Shown here in pieces: positions 5,046 through 63,502 of a DNA stretch of 64,000 nt. The translations under genes and the position numbers were made by a program. The DNA lies in assembly GCF_006345805.1 (NCBI RefSeq), contig NC_043006.1, positions 49,724,001-49,788,000 on the forward strand, written 5' to 3'. The stretch comes from Octopus sinensis. Taxonomy: Eukaryota. Position 1 is the stretch's first letter. Each line of letters starts with the position of its first letter. Below the pieces are notes generated by a model, which searched no databases, was not told the DNA's origin, and worked only from the letters and a program-made list of their open reading frames with translations.

Positions 5046-5460
5046 TTATAAAATAGGCTGCTTATAGAGATAGAGAAATTAAGGCTAATCGGCCAGATAT
5101 AGTTGTCAGAGATCACCAAGAAAAAATGCTTTCTAACTAATATATCAATATCGACAGATGACAATGTTTCTCTAAAAGAAACGGAGAAACCTAGAAATAG
5201 CGGTAATTCGAATGTGGAGCCTAAAAACAGAAACAATTTCTATAATAGTAGGCATGTTAGCTTTGATAAAAAACAACAACACATAATCAAAATACCAGGA
5301 CTCAAAAGAGCATATAACAGAGAAAATAGCACTACTAGGCACCACATATATCTTCCGTAAAGCTCTTTCAAGACAGGGAAATTAACAACACCACAAGAAA
5401 ACATAGCATATATTTAAGGGACGCAGAGCTGCACTTGGTAGTGCACAGAAAGCCCTTAAT
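5046..5460 (+). mobile_element. Degraded R4/Dong 3' fragment (RLE remnant plus 3' UTR)
   Basis: DREIKANRPDIVV motif at ~5070-5110; ends just before a long (AAT)n tract. Confidence 0.6.
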
Positions 5461-5473
5461 AAAAATAAGACTA

Positions 5474-5583
<110 letters not shown>

Positions 5584-5600
5584 TAATAATAATAATAATA

Positions 5601-6310
5601 AGGACCACCTAATCTCTGGATGTAAAGTCTTAGCACCAGTGGAGTATAAATTAAGACATGACAGAGTTGGCCAATATCTCCACCGGCTAATAAGTCGGCA
5701 TTACAATATCAAAACTGCCGACAAGTGGTATAATCACCACCCTGAGGCTGTAACTGAAGGAGAAAATGTAACCATTCTGTGGGACTTTCCAGTACATACA
5801 GACCGAACCATCAAGGCCAATAAACCAGATATTGTTGTGAAAGACCAAAACAATAAAGTTTGCTTATTGATCGACATGAGCATCCCCTGTGATCATAATA
5901 TCTCAGCGAAAGAGTTTGACAAGCTCAGAAAATATAAAGACCTACTCATTGAAATTGAGAAAATGTGGCATCTCAAGGCGGTTACAATACCAGTGATCGT
6001 AGGAGCACTAGGAATGATCAAGAAGGGAACCGAAAATTATATGAGAATGATTCCTGGCTTACCATCCCTGCAAGAAGTGCAAAAGATTGTCTTAACTGGT
6101 ACATCACACGTATTGAGAAGAGCATTGTCGATGTGAGAACTGTTGCTGCTCATGTATTTTAATTTAACTTTAAAAAAAAAAAAAAAATGAACGAACTACT
6201 GAGTTTGGTTTAATGGCCTACCAATGTATACTATGAGTTTCTTTGCCCTAGGAGTCGGGAAGACACTCGGCAAGAAATGATAGCAAATTTGAAAGAAGAA
6301 GAATTAAAGG
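5601..6310 (+). mobile_element. Young 5'-truncated R4/Dong LINE (RLE domain plus 3' UTR) inside (TAA)n
   Basis: Clean frame 5601-6136: DHLISGC, RHD, LWDFPVHTDRTIKANKPDIVV...LIDMSIP, IVGALG (PD-(D/E)xK RLE). Flanked by (AAT)n on both sides; the 3' UTR recurs inverted at 15061-15222. Confidence 0.92.
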
Positions 6311-8459: not shown

Positions 8460-11400
8460 GAAACTTTACAGCGACAATGCTCTTCTAAATACATGTGACG
8501 TACCAGTTAAAACAATCTTTTGCACTTCCTGCATGGATGGGAAGCCAGGGATCAGTCTTAAATAATTTTCAGTTCCATTTTTGATCATCCCAAGTGCTCC
8601 TACAATCACTGGTATTGTAACCGTCATGAGATGCACATATTTTCGATTTTGATTAGCATATCTTTATATTTTCTGTGCTTAACAAATTCTTCTGCCGAAA
8701 TATTATGGCTATAAGGTATGCACATGTCAATCAATAAACTTACTTTATTGCTTTTTTCTTTCACAATAATATCTGGTTTATTTGCCTTGATGGTCCGTTC
8801 TGTACACACTGGAAATCCCAAAGAATAGTTACATTTTTTTCCTTCAGTTACAGCCTCAGGGTGATGTTTGTACCATTTGTCAGCAGTTTTGATTTTATAA
8901 TGCCGACACATTATCCAATGTAGATATTGACCAACTCTGTCATGTCTTGATTTGTACTCTACAGGTGCTAAAACCTTACATCCACAAATTAGATGATCGA
9001 CTGTTTCTAATCCATCGTTGCAGTATCGGCACTTTGGGTCTACACCATTTTTCATCACATTGGCTTGACAGTTCTGGATCAATAAGCTCTGATCTTTGGC
9101 AACCAAGATAAAGCCTTCGCTCTCTGCATTTAGCCCTGAGTACTGTAGCAACAGATGGGTGTGCTTCTGGGCTACATCAGCTTGTTTGCTACGGGCCACA
9201 TATTAGCCATGCAGAGGTTTTTGTTCCTACCTATTAGTCAATTGTTCAAACGCATTTTGCTTTTTTATTGATTTCACCTTCTTTGCAACTACAGATATTG
9301 CACTTACCTCATGCTGTTCAATTTAGGTATTATGCATAAACTCACTTGAAAATGTTTTGCTCTCCTTCATAACAGAATGAAGCTTCTTACGTCTTTTATG
9401 GTTTTCAACGAGTTTAGCATCCAGTCGTTAGATATTTCAAGATATTTTGCCAGTCCAATTGTGGTGGTTTTGTAGGAGATTTAAAACTGGATCAAGTCTC
9501 GACTTCCTCGAGCTCTCGGTAGGTAAAGATGATCTGCGTTTGCCTTTGGGTGGTGCATCTTATTGCAAGTCGGCAGCTTACGGATTTTCGTGTCAATCTT
9601 CCTTATTTCGCTCATATTTCAGTTCAACACATTGAAACCGTAAATAACAACAGGAACTGCTAGGAAATTTATAGCTAACATCTTGTTACGCGCAATTAAC
9701 TCGGATTTTAGGACTGCTCGAACTCTCCTGTAACACTCCTTCCTGATCTTCTCTTTCATACTTGCATGTTGAATGCCAGAGCCCTCATTTATTCTGAGGT
9801 ATTTGTAAGTTTGTTCCTGCTCAAGTTCTTTTATGACTGTGTCAACATCCAACACCACCGAATGTGAGGTCTTCACTTTCGCCTTCTGGAAAGTGGCCTT
9901 GGCACATTTATCAAGACCAAATTCTATCCCAATGTCATCAATGAATGCGTTCACAGTACATAGTAGTCCTTCAAGCTCATAATCATGTTTGCCATAGAGT
10001 TTTAAGTCATCCATATAAAATAGATGACTTATTTTCTTGACGCCAATTTTACATCCATACCCTTTTCTGTTGAGTTTACTTGTAAATTAAAGGTGAAAGT
10101 GAGTCACCTTGGAAAATGTTGCAGTTTATATTAATATTTTTTGTGGTCAGTACTCCATTAGAGTGGTATAATTGGAGATTTGCATTCCACATTGACATGC
10201 TGTGCTTCAGGAAGCCTGAAATCACGAGAAATTTCGAAGATATCCAGCGATTTCAAGACCAATGAATGCAGTATGCTGTCAAAGACAGTTTTATAATCAA
10301 TCCATGCAGAACTGAGATTTCTGCGCTTGTTATGACAGTTCTCAAGGATCTTGCGATTGATTAACAGTTAGTCTTTGCATCCATATGAGCGTCGTCGGCA
10401 CCCTTTTTGTTCAGTGAGGAAAATATCGTTCTGTTCCATAAATGTGTATGTTTTCTCCATGAGGATGGATGCTAAAATTTTATACGTGGTAGATGGACAT
10501 GTTATGGGCCGATAGTTTTGGGGAAATTTGCTTTCATTATTCTTCAGCAGTTGGTAACCAATCGGGTGTTTTCGCAGGATCTCTCATAATTTCATTGAAT
10601 AACTGGAGTAACTTTTCGTGGGCGCACGGGAGTGAGGCGAGCTAGAAATTTGGCAGCCTCTCATTACCAGTAGATTTCTACTTATCAGCCTTCGTAAGTG
10701 TCATTCTTAGGTCTGTTATTGTGATGTCTTCCCATCACAATTTTTGTTACGTTTTGGTAGGATCTTTCTGTATGTCTAATCCAGTCTGCGTTTTCATTGT
10801 ATGTCTTTTCTTCAGATAATTTTCCAGAAGTTTTCATCTTCTTGCATGGCAGGTGGGGGGGGGGTCTTCAACGGATATTTTCTCCTTCCCTATTTCTCTA
10901 TAGAATGTTTTCGCATTGGATATGAACAGCTTATCTTGTAATTTTTTTTCTCTTCCCAAATCTTCCTTTTCTTTGAGATTTTGCTTGGACTTTTTGTTGC
11001 AGTGTTTCTTTCCCTGAAAGTAGTTCTTCTCTTGATGAGAATCTGTTTTCTCTACATCTTTCTTCCTTTTCTGGTTTTTACATTGTTTCCATAAATTGGT
11101 TCATTCAATATTGGTATTTCACCTCTCATTATTTCAATCTCTTTTTTAATTTTACTTTTCCATTTTGGAATTCTCCTTAAGTTTGTATTTCTTTGTTTTT
11201 TCAGAGGCATACAACTGGTTTCAATTGTCTTAGCAGCTGCGTAAATAGTTTCATTTAATTCAGTGAGATCTGGTTATAGTTATTATATAATTTCCTTTGT
11301 TACATAGTTTCCATTTTTAATTTGTTTTCTATTTTGGATTGTATTTGAGAGCTTATAAAGTCGTTCTCTGTCATGTATATTAGTGTGTCTTACAACTGCA

Positions 11401-26688: not shown

Positions 26689-27955
26689 AAATATGTTTGT
26701 ATGTATTCGCTTTGGGTGTCTCTATCTACCTTTCCACCTACCTACCTATACAGTATGACTGTACATATGTGTATTTGTGTATCGAGCATGTTTGTGTGTT
26801 CATATATGTATGTATGTAAGTATGTATGTATGTATGTATGTATGTATGTATGTATGTATGTATGTATGTATGTATGTATGTATGTATGAATGTATGTATG
26901 TATGTATGTATGTATGTATGTATGTATGTATGTATTCACGGCTTTATTAATAATTCGCAGAATTTACAGAGTGACCCAAGGGCAGAGAGTTTTATGCCTT
27001 AGCACTTAACTTAGTCGATTATTAATAAGAAGCGTATACATGTTCATGTTATGAGTTCTATTTTCCTGTTTGCATCACTAAAATCCTCTATGTGTGTATG
27101 TATGTATGTATGTATGTATGTATGTATGTATGTATGTATGTATGTATGTATGTATGATGTATGTATGTATGTATGTATGTATGTATGTATGTATGTATGT
27201 ATGTATTAATGTATGTATGTATGTATGTATGTATGTATGTATGTATGTATGTATGTATGTATGTATGTATGTATGTATGTATGTATGTATGTATGTGTGT
27301 GTGTGTGAGTATATGTTTATTATATATATATTTGTATTTGTGTGTGTGTGTGTGAGTATTTATATATATTTATATCTATATGTATGTATGTATCTACTGT
27401 ATGTGTTAACTCTCTGATCCGTCATGGTACATATTACTGATCTCAAAATTGATTATCCCATAGGCATGATAGAGTCTACTGCAGAAATTATATTTCTATA
27501 TGTAAGAGAGAGAGAGGGGGAAGGATGGGGAGAGAGAGAGAGAGAAAGTCGAAATATTGGATGAAGCAAGTGTACACAATCATTTCACATCTTATATATA
27601 TATATATATATATATATAGGTGTGTGAGTGTGTATGTGTGTGTGTGTGCATATCTGCATACACACATATATACCAGAACGTGTATCTCTCACATACATCT
27701 TACACCAGTTCACGCACAAGCACATATATATGGCCATACTGACTCTCTTTCACGCATATTTACCCATTGGCGTATTTTATTATTTGTTGTTTTGATTTTT
27801 GTGGCTTCATGGCAATGAACGTTTTATTGCTCATAAATCTGATAACATACACATAATCTGTATATTTACCTATCTCAATGAGTTCATATCACTCTCCCTA
27901 TTTCATCAATCTATGCGACTTTATTAATATAACTATCCATTTGTTTGCCTTATAG

Positions 27956-28016
<61 letters not shown>

Positions 28017-29274
28017 CATTTGCTGTCAACACCCGTTAAAAGAAGGGCTGGGCATGCTGTGGTTGATGATGCGCAGACACGCGCTGAGACTGCGACATCT
28101 CCAACTCTATGTACACGACGGTGAAAAGGTGTGGTCGCCGTTTGTGAGGCACGCCTTCCCGCAGCTCGTCTCCATGACCGAACTGCAGTCGTGGATCAAA
28201 AAGAGACCGAGGAAGGGCGAATGGCACCGCGAGTGTCGCGTTGCTCTCAAGCAACTATGCCGTCCCGGGTCGACCATGAGTAACTTCAACACAACCAAAG
28301 CATTCTATAGGGAATTAGTGGAGGGGAGGTACGACGACGATCTTGGGGCGAACCTGGGCGTCGACGAGGAATATCTGACCCGCCTGTTTGAGACGACTTT
28401 CAGGCCGGGACCTATGGACAACTTCCAGAGATCCCTGGCCTGGCAGTGCTACCGAGAAGCGCTACCCGTTCGAGATAAGCTCTATAGGCATGGCTCGAGA
28501 AACACGGGGCCGACCTGCCCGAGATGCGATCAGAGCAACGAAACCGTTCTGTACGCAATCGTTGATTTTTTATTGTTCTGCACGCAATCGTGCAGTGTCC
28601 AACAATCTCCGACCTGTGGGCTTATGTCGAACGACTGCTGTCACGTGTAGGACATGTCGGTTTATCAGCCGAGTCTATTGTTAATATCGTCACGCCTCCT
28701 TCCTTCATACTTGTGGCTATGGCGAAAGAATGTATCTGGTGGACGCGCCTGAAAGGATTAGAGAAAACACTTTCCTCTCTGGTCAATCTCTCATCAACTT
28801 CTTCAAGTATCACTTGAAAAGGAATGTGAGAGTAGAGAGGCAAGTTTTGTCTAGTGAATGTTTTAAAAAAGATGGGTGAATGTGGCAAGGATGGCACGTA
28901 TGAATGACGAAGCCACCTTGAGTATGATCCTATGAACGGTAAAATTTAATACAGAGAGTTAGTTATTTGTAAAAAAAATATAACATGTGACTTCATTGAC
29001 CGATGTTACCGTGGTCTTTTCCATAGGCTTTTCTTTCCACGGGCAAACCTCACTTGTCTTCCTCTTTACACTTTACATTGACATTTCTGTGATAACGATC
29101 CCTATTGATCGATTTTTTCTTTTTCCTTTTATTTTTATTCCCCCACCCCTTTAATTTTTTTTTACGATCCCTTTTGATCGAAAACCAACCCCCCTTTTTT
29201 ATCCCCCCCAAGAAAAGTTCTAGCTTGTAATTTGTCCCGTCTGTGTGCAGCCCTGTGTGGCTAATAAAGAAGCA

Positions 29275-56479: not shown

Positions 56480-58023
56480 AATAAAATATAAATATATGCA
56501 TATATACATACATATATGTACATACCTACATCTATATGTATATATACATGCATATATGGGTACAGGACATAAAAAACGTTGAACACAATGAGAAACGAAA
56601 AATTAAAAACAAAAACATGGAAACGAACTTTTTTTCAAAGAACGAAAAAACGTAGTACAAGGCATACAACACAAGGAATATTCCCCTTCTTCAGTTGTCC
56701 CTGTTTCGTCTACTCCGCGTTTTCAAAGGTAAGGACAAGACGCGACTTCGTTGAAACAGTCCTTCCCGCAAAGCAAATTAAATAAAATTTGGGATTTTTT
56801 GCGGAGGGTTAAAAGTGGTAACAAAAACAGGACAGTAAGAACAAAACAAGACAGTAAAAACAACAAAAGAAGAAAAAAGTATAAGACAGAACAAAGAGAA
56901 TAACACAGCAAAAACAAACGATGAGGGCTGTTAAGTCAAGTCGAGGTAAAAATTATTCTGAACGCTTAAGGAGACAGCTTATGAGAGAGACAGGATAAGC
57001 GGTCTGGTCTTGGTGAAGATAGCAGTTGGAAAGATGGCTTCCCTCTGATCACGTGTCAGTGACGAGAGAATCAAGGAGGAGGAGTAAGAGAGAGAGAACG
57101 GTGAAGGGGATATATATATGTATATGTATCGAGAGTTGAACAGACAGAACACAACAAGGATAAAAAGTTAGACGAAAGCAGAGAAAACGTGAGACTTAAC
57201 GGATGGGAAAAATTGACGAAGACACGACACATAAAATATTCGCAGCTGAGTTTTCCTCGTCAGTCATTGACCCAAAATATCACAGTGGTTTCGCGCCATT
57301 ACCATTGAGACCACTTAATCTTGGAGGCGCCAGTGCAGTTACTAAGCTACTGGGAAAAAGCTAGCGAATGTATACGAAGACGAACAAACAAGACATTATA
57401 TAGATACAAAGACGAAGAATTATGCATATATAACAGCACAAAGCTTTACAGCTATATACAACAGAATAAAAAAATAATAATTATACATATACCACAAATA
57501 TAACAGAAGGTGCTTTTCAGCTATCGAACGAACTTAGTGGGGTTGCGCAAAGATGAAATGGGGTAAGTCCTAGTGGACGTAGCAGGAGCCTAGAGCAGCA
57601 TGACCAGACTAGTCAAGGCAGGGCCAAAAAGAACAACACCGCCTTCACCGGACATGGGTCACGTGGTAGGGAAGAGGAAGAATGGGAGATAGAGAGAGAA
57701 AGAGAACTAAGAAGCAGAGGGAGAAATGGAGTGAAAGAGAGAGTCGTGAAAGGTACAAGGGAGGTAAGCAAGGGTGAAAAGAGAGCGTAAGAGTGGAGAA
57801 AGAGGTAGAGTAAGAGGGAAAGAGGGGGATATATATATAGAGAGAGAACAGAAAGAAAGGGAAAAAGAGAGAGAAGAGAAAGGTACCAGGGAAGCAAGCA
57901 AAGGCGGAAAGAGAGAGAGTAAGAGTGGAGAAAGAGGTAGAGTAAAAGTAGAAGTGGAAAATGATAGTGATAGAGTGATGATGGCAATCCCTCAAGGTCG
58001 AGGATGATGGTTTTCGCGCAAAT

Positions 58024-61000
58024 TTACTGGCGAGTCCGTAGGTGACCGATAAGACCAATTCTTGCTTGAAAAGATCGGTCGCAGTGCGGACATCTAGTAC
58101 CGGAAGGGAGAGTCGCACGTGGTTGTTGTTGGCGCTCCTTCTGTCGTCGTCTTTTCTCCTCCAGCTCTGCAGACCTTTTCGACTCGAAAGTCGCCGTTCC
58201 CTCATGGATGGTGGTTTTCCAGAGTGGTCTGTTTTTTTGCCGTATCCTCCCAGTTAGTGAAGTCGATGTCACACTTTTTGAGGTTCGTTTTCAGGGAGTC
58301 CTTGTAGCGTTTCTTCTGGCCTCCTTTTGTACGCTTGCCGTCTTTGAGTTGAGAGTAGATCTGTTTGGGAAGTCGTTCGTCAGTCATTCTAACCACGTGG
58401 CCGCTCCATCTTAGTTGGCCTTTGATGACATAGGCTTCGATGCTGGTCATTTTTGCTTCTTGTAGCACGCTGACGTTAGTTCTTCTGTCTTCCCAGCTGA
58501 TGTTAAGGATCTTCCGAAGACAGCGTTGGTGAAATTTCTCGAGCGTTTTCAGGTGGTGATTATACGGAGTCCAGGTTTCGGATGTGTAAAGGAGGGTTGG
58601 AATAATGACTGCCCTGTACACCATGAGTTTGGTTTCGGTTCGGATGTCCCGATCAGCAAAAACTCTTGTTCAAAGCTTGCCGAAAGCTGTTCCTGCACAC
58701 TTCAGACGGTGTTGGATTTCATCGCTGAGGTCTACCTTTGCTGACAGATAGCTCCCAAGGTAGCAGAAATGGTTCACATTTTCCAGTGGAATTCCTTCGA
58801 GTTGAATCGATGGCGGGTTGTCAACACGGGCATTGGGAGGAGGTTGGTAGAGTAAGTGAGTCTTCTTGATGTTGATGCTCAGTCCAAGTTTAGTATATGC
58901 ATGATGAAAAGCATTTAGGATCTGTTGGAGGTGATCCTCTCTGTAAGCTGCTACACTGTTGTCGTCGGCATATTGGAACTCTAGCAAGCTTCGCGCCATT
59001 GTCTTTGACGTACTTTTGAGGCGAGCGAGGTTGAAAAGCTTGCCGTCCATTCTGTACGAGATCTCGATGCCAGGTGGAAGGTCATCTCGTATGATGTGCA
59101 ACACTGTCGCGATAAAGATGGTAAAGAGAGTTGGCGCTATCACGCAGCCTTGCTTTACTCCGGAGGTGACTTTAAAGGGCTCAGAACTGCCTCTGTCGGT
59201 CTGGACTCTGGCGTGCATATTGTCGTGGAGGAGTTTGAGGATCCGGATGAACTTATCTGGGCATCCATACTGGGCGAGAATATCCCAGAGGAGCTCTCGC
59301 GAGACACGATCAAAGACTTTGGATAGGTCGATAAAGGCCAAATAGAGCGGTTGGTGTTGCTCACGACATTTTTCTTGTAACTGTCGCAGCGTGAAGATCA
59401 TGTCGGTTGTGCTTCGTGATGGCCTAAAGCCGGTCTGCGTCTCAGGAAGGATCCTCTCTGACAGCATTTTGAGGCGGTTGTTCAGGATGCGTTCAAGAAT
59501 CTTCCCAGCAGTTGCTAATAAGGAAATACCCCGGTAATTTCCACACTCAGAACGATCGCCCTTTCGTTTGTAAATGGTAATGATGTTAGCATCCCTGAAG
59601 TCGGATGGTACAACTTCATTTGTCCAGATTTTGACCAAGAGTTGGTGGAGCTGGTGTTGGACAAAATCACATCCCAGTTTGTTTATCTCAGCTGGGATTC
59701 CGTCAGAACCCGCGGCTTTGTTGTTCTTCGTCGCTGTGATAGCAATTTTGACCTCTTCGAGGGATGGAATTCGAGCGAGAGAGTAATCCTTGACCTCTTT
59801 AGGAATCATGTGAAGTATGCTTTTGTCGATGGTAGCCTTGTGATTGAGGAGGCCATCGAAGTGTTCTCTCCATCTGTCTCCTATTTCTGTGTTGCTTTTC
59901 AGGATGGTCGCTCCGTCTTTACTCTTCAGAGGAGCCTGTCCATGTGTGGAAGGTCCGTATATTTCTTTCGTGGTTTTGAAGAACCCTCTGGTGTCGTTTA
60001 CATCTGCTAACTGCTGGATTTCACGAGATTTTTGTCTCCACCACTGGTTCTTCAGGGTACGGGTTGTCCTTTGAACTGCAGTTTTGTACTTTTTGAAAGA
60101 CTCTCGTTTAATGGTAGACTTTGGATCATTCTGTGAGCTGATGAAAGCTTTCCGTTTTTGGTCGATCAGTTCTTTGAGAGATTCATCATTGTCGTCGAAC
60201 CAGTCCTGGTCTTTCCTTTTCTTGCGACCGATGGTTTCTTCGCAAGCGGTGATGATGGTTTCTTTCAGCTGGTTCCAATTTTCTTCGACGAGATGATTTG
60301 GAGTCTTATTTTGAAGATTGACCTGTAGGCGCTGCTAGAAAGCGACACGAGTTTTTGGGTCTTGCAGTGCTTCGATGTTGAATTTCTTTACTCTGCTTTC
60401 CTTGCTGTGATATTTCACTTTTGGTCGGAGTTTGATTTTCATGGTGGAGGCGATGAGGCGATGATCTGTCCAGCACTCATCTGCTCCAGTGGCGGCTCTG
60501 GTGAGCAACACATCTTGCTGGTCTCGGGATCTCACGATGATATAGTCGATGAGATGCCATTTTTTAGATCTTGGATGCTGCCATGAGACCTTATATCGAT
60601 TCTTCTTGCGAAAAAGGGTGTTGGTTATTACCAAGTTACGTTCAGCACATTTGGTGAGTAGCAGAGTTCCATTGGCATTGACTTTTCCCACTCCTTCCGT
60701 TCCGATGGTTCCTGTCCAGAGTTCACGATCTCTCCCAACTCTGGCGTTGAAATCTCCCAGGAGAATGATCTTGTCGTTCTTTGGGACGGTAGAGAGAATG
60801 CTATCAAGCTGGCTGTAAAACTCTTCCTTGACTAAATCCTCCGCGTCAAGGGTGGGAGCATACGCGCTGATGATAGTTGCGTGCTGACTTTTGACAAGCT
60901 GGATTCGGAGGGTCATGAGTGGTGCGGACATTCCGATGGGCTGCTCTGTCAGTTTGGATAGGATGGTGTTTCGTATTGCAAGACCCACACCATGGATCCG

Positions 61001-61432
61001 TTGATGGTCGGGATCGTAACCTTTCCAGAAAAAGGTGTATTGACCGCCTTCTTCTCTCAGCCGGTCTTCTCCGGCTCTCCGGGTTTCACTGAGAGCTTCG
61101 ATGTCAAAATTGAATCGATGGGGTTCCAGGGCGATGATTGCAGTTCGCCTTTCGGGTCTGTCTGAGTTGGTGTTATCTATGAGAGTCCTGATATTCCAGG
61201 TCCCGAATTTCAGCGTTGCGTATCTTGATCTTGATTTTCGACCGCATGATGGTGATCCCTCTGGACGCGGTTTTCCAGACAGGCTTGGGATGAAGCAGAC
61301 TATGTTTAGGGCACCTTTTCTAGCTCCTTCCCAATTCAGGGTGAGCAGAGTGGATCCTAAACAGGGCTGCTCAGTCGTGGATACTGCTGCCGAACATCTT
61401 TCCTGCTTCTTCCGAAAGATAGAGCGACTGAA
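58024..61432 (-). pseudogene. RTE AP-endonuclease/reverse transcriptase with C-terminal C2H2 finger; two stops and one frameshift
   Basis: GTWNIRTL, ALSETR, AYAPT, GDFNARVG, WTDH, GNYRGISLL, GVKQGCVIAP, QYADD, LRWSGHVVRM, CPHC...GLIGHLR. TAG at 60335-60337, TGA at 58670-58672, extra A in an A-run near 58235. Confidence 0.93.
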
Positions 61433-61770
61433 TCATGTAACCACCGCATCCGTGCCGGTTCTGCATTAGGAGCCTCCAGCCTTCACGAGCCTGCTCCCGT
61501 CATCCATCGCCGATCGCCGAAAGACTTGGAAAGAATAAGAAGAGTGGTGGCGAAGACGCCTGTGCGTGAAATTTTTTAACGTGTGCTTGAGGTCGCACGC
61601 CCAGTAAAGCACACGTAAACTTGACAGACCACCAACTTGACCCAATGGCAAGGTAAACCGAGACGATTGGAGTCGATGGTCTGCTGCAGCCTTCGTCCGC
61701 TTTCGCAGCCGTTGAGTTGTTAAGGCAACTTCATTCGCCTGTTCCACCGTTGAGGACTTGATGACTGTCA

Positions 61771-61855
61771 GAGCCCCGTTTGCCGCTAGCACAGCTGGCT
61801 TGCTGTGCTCGCGTTGCCCAGTTTGCACCCCGTGGAGGAGGGGTTGAACTTTTGC
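61771..61855 (-). ncRNA. HDV-like ribozyme at the RTE 5' terminus (P1 5' strand truncated)
   Basis: GCAAAAGTTCAAC-CCC-TCCTCCAC-GGG-GTGCAAACT-GG-GCAA-CGC G AGCACAGC(AAGCCA)GCTGTGCT A GCG-GCAAAC-GGGGCT. Confidence 0.75.
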
Positions 61856-62230
61856 AGTGATAGAGTAAGAGTAAAGAGAGTTAAGAGTCGCACAATAGTC
61901 AGGGAATAATTTTTATAATAAAGTAAACAGAGTGTGCGTATAAAGGGTTGAACAGACAGAACACAACAAGGAGAAAAAATTAGACAAAGGCAGAGCCAAC
62001 GGGAAACTAGACGAAAACTTAACGGACGGGAAATATAGGCAAAGACATGAAACATGAGTTTCGCGGCTGAGTTCTCCTCGTCAGTCAAAGACCCAAAATA
62101 TGATAGTGGTTTCGCGCCATTACCATTGAGACCACTCAATCTTGGAGACGTGTGTGCTGTTATTAAGCTACTGGGCAAAAGCTAGCGAACTAAAACAGAT
62201 ACAAACATCACACACACACACAAACACACA

Positions 62231-63069: not shown

Positions 63070-63502
63070 TTATTCTTTTACTTGTTTCAGTCATTTGACT
63101 GCGGCCATGATGGAGCACCACCTTTAGTCGAGCAAATCGAACCCGGGACTTATTCTTTGTAAGCCTAGTACTTATTCTATCGGTCTCTTTTGCCGAACCG
63201 CTAAGTGACGCGGACGTAACTTAGCGGTTCGGCAAAATTATAATTTAGGAATACTAGATTCTTAAATTATACGACCATGAACATTATATACATACATGCA
63301 TACACACATCCATCCATCCATCTATCCATACATACATACATACATAAAAACGTATTACTGCTATTGGTAAGATCAACATCGCTTGACAACATCAGCATCA
63401 GTTGTCAAGCGATGTTGGGGGACAAACACAGACACGCAAACATATATACACACACACATACATACATACATACATACATACATACATACATACATACATA
63501 CA

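Follow-up and report, generated by a model that had tools for sequence, protein, structure and literature searches.

A predicted HDV-like ribozyme at the 5′ end of an RTE-type LINE family, represented by a clipped and probably inactive copy

What sets the 5′ end of an RTE-type LINE, and does the copy in this window (the whole stretch of DNA analysed, 64 kb long) still carry the means? An earlier note, made from the sequence of the window, had placed a self-cleaving ribozyme of the HDV type at the first bases of the element, with the copy itself starting a few nucleotides short of the cleaved end. We asked how well the letters, the statistics and the sister copies bear out this proposal for the family, and how it fares for the window copy.

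The element and its insertion site

The insertion runs on the minus strand from 61855 to 57977, is 3,879 bp long, and has an 11-bp target-site duplication (TSD) and a broken ORF. Its parts are as follows.

61856..61866, no strand: TSD copy on the element's 5′ side, 11 bp
61222..61770, minus: 5′ UTR downstream of the ribozyme (the whole 5′ UTR is about 630 nt)
58027..61221, minus: one ORF, which encodes an APE endonuclease and a reverse transcriptase (YADD) and has a C-terminal C2H2-like motif
57977..58026, minus: 3′ UTR, 50 nt, with CATCATC at its end
57966..57976, no strand: TSD copy on the element's 3′ side, 11 bp

The traits of an RTE-type element are present: a single APE-RT ORF, a TSD, and a brief 3′ UTR with a short tandem repeat at its end. 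The ORF contains Pfam domains PF03372, PF14529 and PF00078 (APE endonuclease and reverse transcriptase) and is colinear with homologs of 1,060-1,080 aa, of which the closest among the matches listed (P0021) shares 91% identity across 895 residues. The ORF's first in-frame ATG comes about 300 nt after its start. The window copy is not autonomous: its reading frame is interrupted by stops at 60337 and 58672 and shifts near 58235. Some homologs carry the name craniofacial development protein 2, which we take to be linked to RTE endonucleases. Assignment to the RTE clade is indirect, drawn from the domain build, matches to published RTE-2_OV primers (see below) and homolog names rather than from a tree. 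A second copy of the element was not found within the 64-kb window. SINE sequences suggest that the host may be an octopus.

The LINE is nested in another repeat. Numerous contigs that match 61856-61897 run on into a purine-rich stretch resembling the opposite flank (57680-57976); these look like empty-site paralogs. Two direct copies of a further repeat, 78% identical, flank the LINE at 57126-57299 and 61938-62120 and would have stood about 0.9 kb apart before the insertion; they can be read either as tandem copies or as terminal repeats of some element. Elsewhere in the window, other non-LTR retrotransposon-like fragments with reverse transcriptase and restriction-like endonuclease ends were recognised by eye at 5339-6136, 8624-9202, 9619-10086 and 27928-28650. 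An inverted repeat, TTTTGCCGAACCGCTAAGT ... ACTTAGCGGTTCGGCAAAA, lies at 63165-63235 within a SINE-like repeat and is apparently a foldback rearrangement.

The HDV-like core and its two registers

The predicted ribozyme occupies the first bases of the element and can be divided as follows.

61853..61857, minus: what is left of the P1 5′ strand (CTGCA, family bases 4-8), with bases 1-3 (GGT) missing
61840..61852, minus: J1/2 and P2 5′ strand, the latter being AGTTC at 61850-61846 (register A) or the C-run at 61843-61840 (register B)
61827..61843, minus: P3/L3 core, with two UCC triplets in tandem
61820..61827, minus: P1 3′ strand, TGCAAACT in the window and TGCAGACT in nearly all sister-copy depth
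61813..61819, minus: P1.1 GG (61819-61818) and GCAAC, equal to the Rfam HDV consensus GGGCAAC
61784..61813, minus: P4, made of 3 bp, G·A, 8 bp and a 6-nt loop
61778..61783, minus: J4/2 GCAAAC, in which 61782 is the predicted equivalent of the catalytic C75
61772..61777, minus: P2 3′ strand GGGGCT (GGGCT at 61776-61772)

All the motif letters that the earlier note had reported, namely TGCAAACT, GGGCAAC, both P4 strands, GGCAAA and GGGCT, were found on the minus strand, and the P3/L3 region reads CCCC-TCCTCCAC-GGGG at 61843-61828. The 8-bp P4 stem is present as AGCACAGC/GCTGTGCT (61809-61802/61795-61788) but belongs to a longer stem than was claimed, in which 3 bp and a G·A precede the 8 bp. The 38-nt piece bearing P4 was more stable than all of 200 shuffles (z −4.05). 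P1.1 can form between GG at 61819-61818 and CC at 61835-61834 (register B) or 61838-61837 (register A). J4/2 reads CAAA at 61782-61779, in keeping with the CRRA consensus, and no difference was listed there among the sister contigs of any of the four runs. The Rfam alignment also places the predicted catalytic C at 61782, as the earlier note had it, a position common to both registers.

The Rfam model RF00094 aligned over its whole length (61770-61852, minus strand; model positions 1-89) with 25.3 bits (E 0.084, for 301 nt and 4227 families), half the gathering score of 50 bits; the model is built on viral ribozymes, and the copy scored was the truncated one in the window. How often would the GC-rich end of a UTR resemble an HDV ribozyme by chance? 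A loose descriptor of the core, drawn up with the sequence already known and with no demand for the P1 5′ strand, matched one locus in the window when G25 was demanded, the ribozyme itself, but also matched 23 of 100 block-shuffled windows; together with the low Rfam score, this is what can be said for a chance likeness. Yet the motif stands at the element's first bases, where 3 of 2000 shuffled 5′ UTRs matched (without G25 the counts rose to 72 of 100 windows and 18 of 2000 UTRs), and the P1 bases that the window copy lacks were recovered in other contigs. We regard chance likeness as scarcely credible, the sister contigs having already largely refuted it. The core alone would count as modest evidence, weak at the scale of the window and strong at the element's 5′ position.

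A search of PDB sequences gave no match. A sigma-70 scan was discounted as not applicable to an animal genome.

The tandem UCC triplets allow two registers for L3 and P2. In register A, L3 spans 61839-61832 and uses the first UCC; P3 is a perfect 3-4 bp helix, and P2 (AGUUC/GGGCU) has five pairs, two of them U·G, set off from P3. In register B, the one chosen by Rfam, L3 starts at 61836 and uses the second UCC, so that U20, C21, C22, A23, C24 and G25 are all present. Here P2 pairs the C-run with the G-run through four contiguous G-C pairs, followed by a mismatch and one A-U, leaving one extra base in J4/2; P3 has either 3 bp with a 6-nt L3 or 2 bp and a U·U with a 7-nt L3, the usual P3 being 3 bp. 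P2 is weak in every register, set against the 5 bp or more expected of HDV. The earlier note's P3, L3 and P2 correspond to register A: its letters are there, but it offers no equivalent of G25, and the Rfam register sits three bases downstream.

Published passages describe the fixed features of HDV-like ribozymes as G1·Y, P1.1 CC/GG, L3 U..CG and J4/2 CRRA, the U, C and G of L3 being crucial (PMC6326823), and register B has them all. Both the Rfam model and the strict descriptor pick register B. Loss of the L3 G abolished cleavage in the Nasonia R2 ribozyme, though not in HDV itself, as the available text of PMC3774820 reports, which argues against register A. A contig of single-copy depth in X1 has A at 61827, a change that completes P3 in register B and breaks a P1 pair in register A, although one contig may be chance. 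On the other side, register A had the lowest energy in nested models (−28.2 kcal/mol, compared with −26.2 and −24.5 for register B, which is 2-4 kcal/mol worse), although these energies do not decide the matter, and a short-P4 contig in X6 (loose end 61843) has C at the equivalent of 61848, turning U·G into C-G in the P2 of register A, and an extra C in the C-run, both of them changes in favour of A. R2 ribozymes, moreover, tolerate changed L3 spacing, and about one third of them have P2 mismatches (both from the available text of PMC3774820). On balance we lean towards register B as the active one, with L3 from 61836 and P2 formed by the C-run and G-run. An active fold in register A, with P3 CCC(C)/GGG(G), L3 from 61839 and P2 AGYUC/GGGCU, would be an HDV-like core without the usual G25; we hold it to be the less probable reading, though a serious one. 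P1, the P1.1 GG, P4 and C61782 hold in either register.

Two further pairings were rejected. A distal P2, in which 61849-61843 pairs with 61747-61741, is feasible on energy grounds, but it would put the catalytic C far from P2 and is broken by the X6 variant; its partner segment also belongs to a downstream motif conserved in a metagenome relative (L001, below), which we counted against it. An alternative P1, AGUU/AACU, depends on a base at 61823 that is private to the window.

Family 5′ end and the state of the window copy

Sister copies were drawn from assembled contigs of four (X1, X2, X6 and X9) of the 24 public runs listed, aligned to 61640-61910. Among the loose ends listed, three contigs in X1, four in X2 and three in X9 continue past 61857 with bases that start with ACC on the plus strand, or GGT on the RNA; the loose ends are pooled consensuses, in which the GGT start is not shown for every single contig. 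Across the 30 letters displayed, the pooled agreement in X1, X2 and X9 was only 0.60-0.63. A contig of X6 contains all of GGTCTGCA and passes directly into flanking sequence that is unique. At least two contigs end short of G1, at 61856 in X9 and at 61853 in X2 (record 15). The runs probably share loci, record 13 of X2 being equal to record 29 of X9 in length and coordinates.

These ends bear out the main proposal, by which the 5′ end of the family is fixed by an HDV-like ribozyme and the window copy is slightly short: the contigs complete P1 and then diverge. The sister copies do point to one start, as had been foreseen, but it is GGTCTGCA and not the predicted 5′ strand GGTTTGCA, base 4 of P1 being C. 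Copies without a P1-complementary 5′ strand would have spoken against the ribozyme; instead, the family end GGTCTGCA is fully complementary to TGCAGACT. The error in the prediction has a simple source. On the RNA strand, position 61823 is A in the window and G in the family (depth 596.2/596.2 in X1, 78.5/83.7 in X2, 22.2/22.2 in X6 and 890.4/943.1 in X9), and the family G restores a C-G pair in P1. The X6 contig that spans the same insertion junction carries the family G, so the window's A arose after insertion, and GGTTTGCA was predicted wrongly because this private substitution had altered the P1 strand.

The family P1 is a perfect duplex, 8 (or 7) bp long, that opens with G·U at the first base of the element and has a stability of −11.3 kcal/mol, like the P1 of about 7 bp that opens with G1·Y in HDV-like ribozymes. 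Three random bases would complete P1 with a chance of 0.03, or 0.01 if G·U is to come first. No difference was listed among the sister contigs at 61782-61779, 61819-61818 or 61836-61833. One subfamily, with an X1 depth of 176/489 (about one third), has a P4 5 nt shorter and a change at 61789; by inspection its stem still pairs. Very probably the family carries an HDV-like ribozyme that marks the RTE 5′ end.

Could the family end instead be set by an internal promoter that starts transcription at G1, with the HDV-like fold vestigial or merely protective or translation-initiating? The weak P2 and the ambiguous L3 would fit such an origin, DNA contigs cannot tell a start site from a cut site, and the 77 nt of L1Tc are described in the available part of PMC4758252 as both promoter and ribozyme. 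But the family ends exactly at the G whose partner is the final U of P1, the majority form of the family has a perfect P1, and RTE elements that bear ribozymes are said to lack promoters of their own (PMC6765202, in the portion available). We therefore consider a promoter-set end quite unlikely and favour the ribozyme.

The window copy itself has lost ground at P1. With the real flank, 4 of 8 pairs remain, all distal to the cut site, and the duplex is worth −3.5 kcal/mol, short of a P1 of about 7 bp; the pairs adjoining the cut site are replaced by U·U, C·C, A·A and C·A, and the G·U first pair is lost. The element does start at 61855, beside the TSD, as the earlier note had stated; what was read as reverse transcription stopping about 5 nt short resolves into a truncation of 3 nt plus a 2-nt microhomology, in which CT at 61857-61856 (minus strand) is both the end of the TSD and family bases 4-5. 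Self-cleavage of this copy, with flanking bases completing P1, would draw on the four pairs that are left, on L3, P1.1, P4 and C75 letters equal to the family majority, and on the precedent of the Nasonia R2 ribozyme, in which a 4-nt P1 is functional according to the available text of PMC3774820. The four lost pairs, however, are those that adjoin the cut site, the minimum-energy fold gains a rival AGUU/AACU helix through the change at 61823, and the X6 contig with the same junction has two further changes of its own, as under neutral decay. We judge continued cleavage very unlikely; the window copy is a damaged member of the family, its ribozyme 5′-clipped, point-mutated and probably inactive.

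Contigs from both X1 (organism A) and X6 (organism C) run across the insertion junction (61856-61898), the one from X6 bearing changes of its own; the insertion is thus common to samples with different species labels.

Relatives, mechanism and known systems

A wider search yielded few relatives. Metagenome contigs gave four related loci, of which one (L001) includes the UTR; its endonuclease is 65% identical to that of the window element. The window 5′ UTR (61222..61770) is 68% identical to that of L001 over 569 columns (window 61222-61764, minus strand, against L001 116-648), the similarity beginning just after the ribozyme. In two-sequence folding of this UTR, 9 of 35 pairs were changed on both sides, which suggests conserved helices downstream of the ribozyme, although two sequences are too few to trust. 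The conserved segment may be related to the mid-UTR domain of RTE elements outlined in the accessible part of PMC5786205. Positions 1-115 of L001 did not align to the window ribozyme, matched no Rfam ribozyme family and held no recognisable HDV motif; they contain a hairpin and then a segment resembling J4/2-P2, and could be either a ribozyme that is truncated or has diverged, or a 5′ module that was swapped in.

Among viral contigs, a protein search found no relatives (0/17 and 0/27 candidates). Two DNA patterns gave three viral-contig loci (L006-L008), of which L006, when read, looked like unrelated GC-rich sequence, L007 and L008 being covered by the descriptor scan. Genome contigs gave one weak match, at 23% identity. 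Neither the core descriptor nor a family-type motif matched any of the eight loci (four metagenome, three viral-contig, one genome).

By analogy with known systems, we infer double-pseudoknot folding, C61782-dependent cleavage and transcription from host promoters. Copies lying inside host transcription units would be co-transcribed with the host; intact copies would fold into the double pseudoknot and cut before G1; and the freed RNA would be translated, an IRES-like activity having been proposed for the leaders of such elements (PMC6765202, in the part available). The RNA would then be reinserted by target-primed reverse transcription that usually reaches G1 and sometimes falls a few bases short. 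For the window copy, reverse transcription may have stopped 3-5 nt too soon, its product joining the target by way of the CT microhomology. With considerable confidence we propose that in intact family copies the HDV-like ribozyme cuts the RNA just before the first G and so frees it from host read-through transcripts, the copy in the window being clipped, mutated and probably inactive.

Ruminski 2011 is reportedly the primary source for HDV-like ribozymes in RTE elements. Our literature search listed no account of a cephalopod RTE, or of the present family, as bearing an HDV-like ribozyme. That such ribozymes occur in RTE 5′ UTRs, which the earlier note had stated, is borne out by two papers: RTE is one of six LINE clades with a 5′ self-cleaving ribozyme (Kojima 2018, PMC5786205), and a 2019 review places HDV-like ribozymes in RTE and baggins elements (PMC6765202). 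Like the published RTE ribozymes, the present one is a predicted double pseudoknot at the element's first base, conserved downstream and differing upstream, with release from host co-transcripts proposed. The family and host are different, and the core has two L3/P2 registers here, in a comparison made by description only.

R2 ribozymes (Eickbush, Burke and Eickbush 2013, PMC3774820, available in part) share the fold, a variable P4 and a tolerance of P2 mismatches, and their variable 5′ junctions are laid to microhomology where cleavage falls at the element's own 5′ end. R2 is, in contrast, rDNA-specific, uses a restriction-like endonuclease and often cleaves upstream in the 28S sequence, whereas the present element is dispersed, uses an APE endonuclease and makes TSDs. 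The 77-nt leader of L1Tc, as described in the accessible parts of PMC6765202 and PMC4758252, is likewise an HDV-like ribozyme that lies in the first ~80 nt of a LINE of APE type whose TSDs are ~12 bp long, but L1Tc comes from trypanosomes, belongs to another clade and has promoter activity, shown for those 77 nt as well. In Perere-3 of Schistosoma mansoni, also an RTE-clade element, a self-cleaving ribozyme processes the 5′ end; that ribozyme is a twister variant, while the present motif is HDV-like (PMC8501958, in the part available).

A further comparison is with RTE-2_OV, an element from Octopus vulgaris (Petrosino et al. 2022, PMC9115989), assigned to RTE by its authors and described, in the portions available, as having a single EN-RT-C2H2 ORF and a 5′ UTR of ~600 nt, as here. 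Two of three published primers tested match the present element, with 2 and 3 mismatches; these mismatches, and the third primer, unmatched at 3 mismatches, mark a different family. The word ribozyme is absent from the text of PMC9115989, and none of the supplements searched yielded the sequence of RTE-2_OV; other supplements may contain its 5′ end.

A more speculative reading, which we think improbable, is that the tandem UCC-UCC with one C-run and two G-runs would let the RNA switch between exclusive folds, a G25-less first hairpin and the catalytic one, kinetically gating RNA release, or that the G25-less fold is itself active; if RTE-2_OV starts alike, its reported brain expression could reflect read-through of neuronal host genes and self-cleavage, without a promoter of its own. 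The reading that we prefer remains that of a ribozyme freeing intact copies from host transcripts. Single genomic copies can mislead, one private substitution here having changed the predicted P1 strand. Fixing the family's true 5′ end should aid the annotation of repeats and make it easier to pick an intact copy for assay. The principle of an HDV-like ribozyme at the RTE 5′ end is already published, and the present RTE family would be an addition to the ribozyme-headed LINEs.
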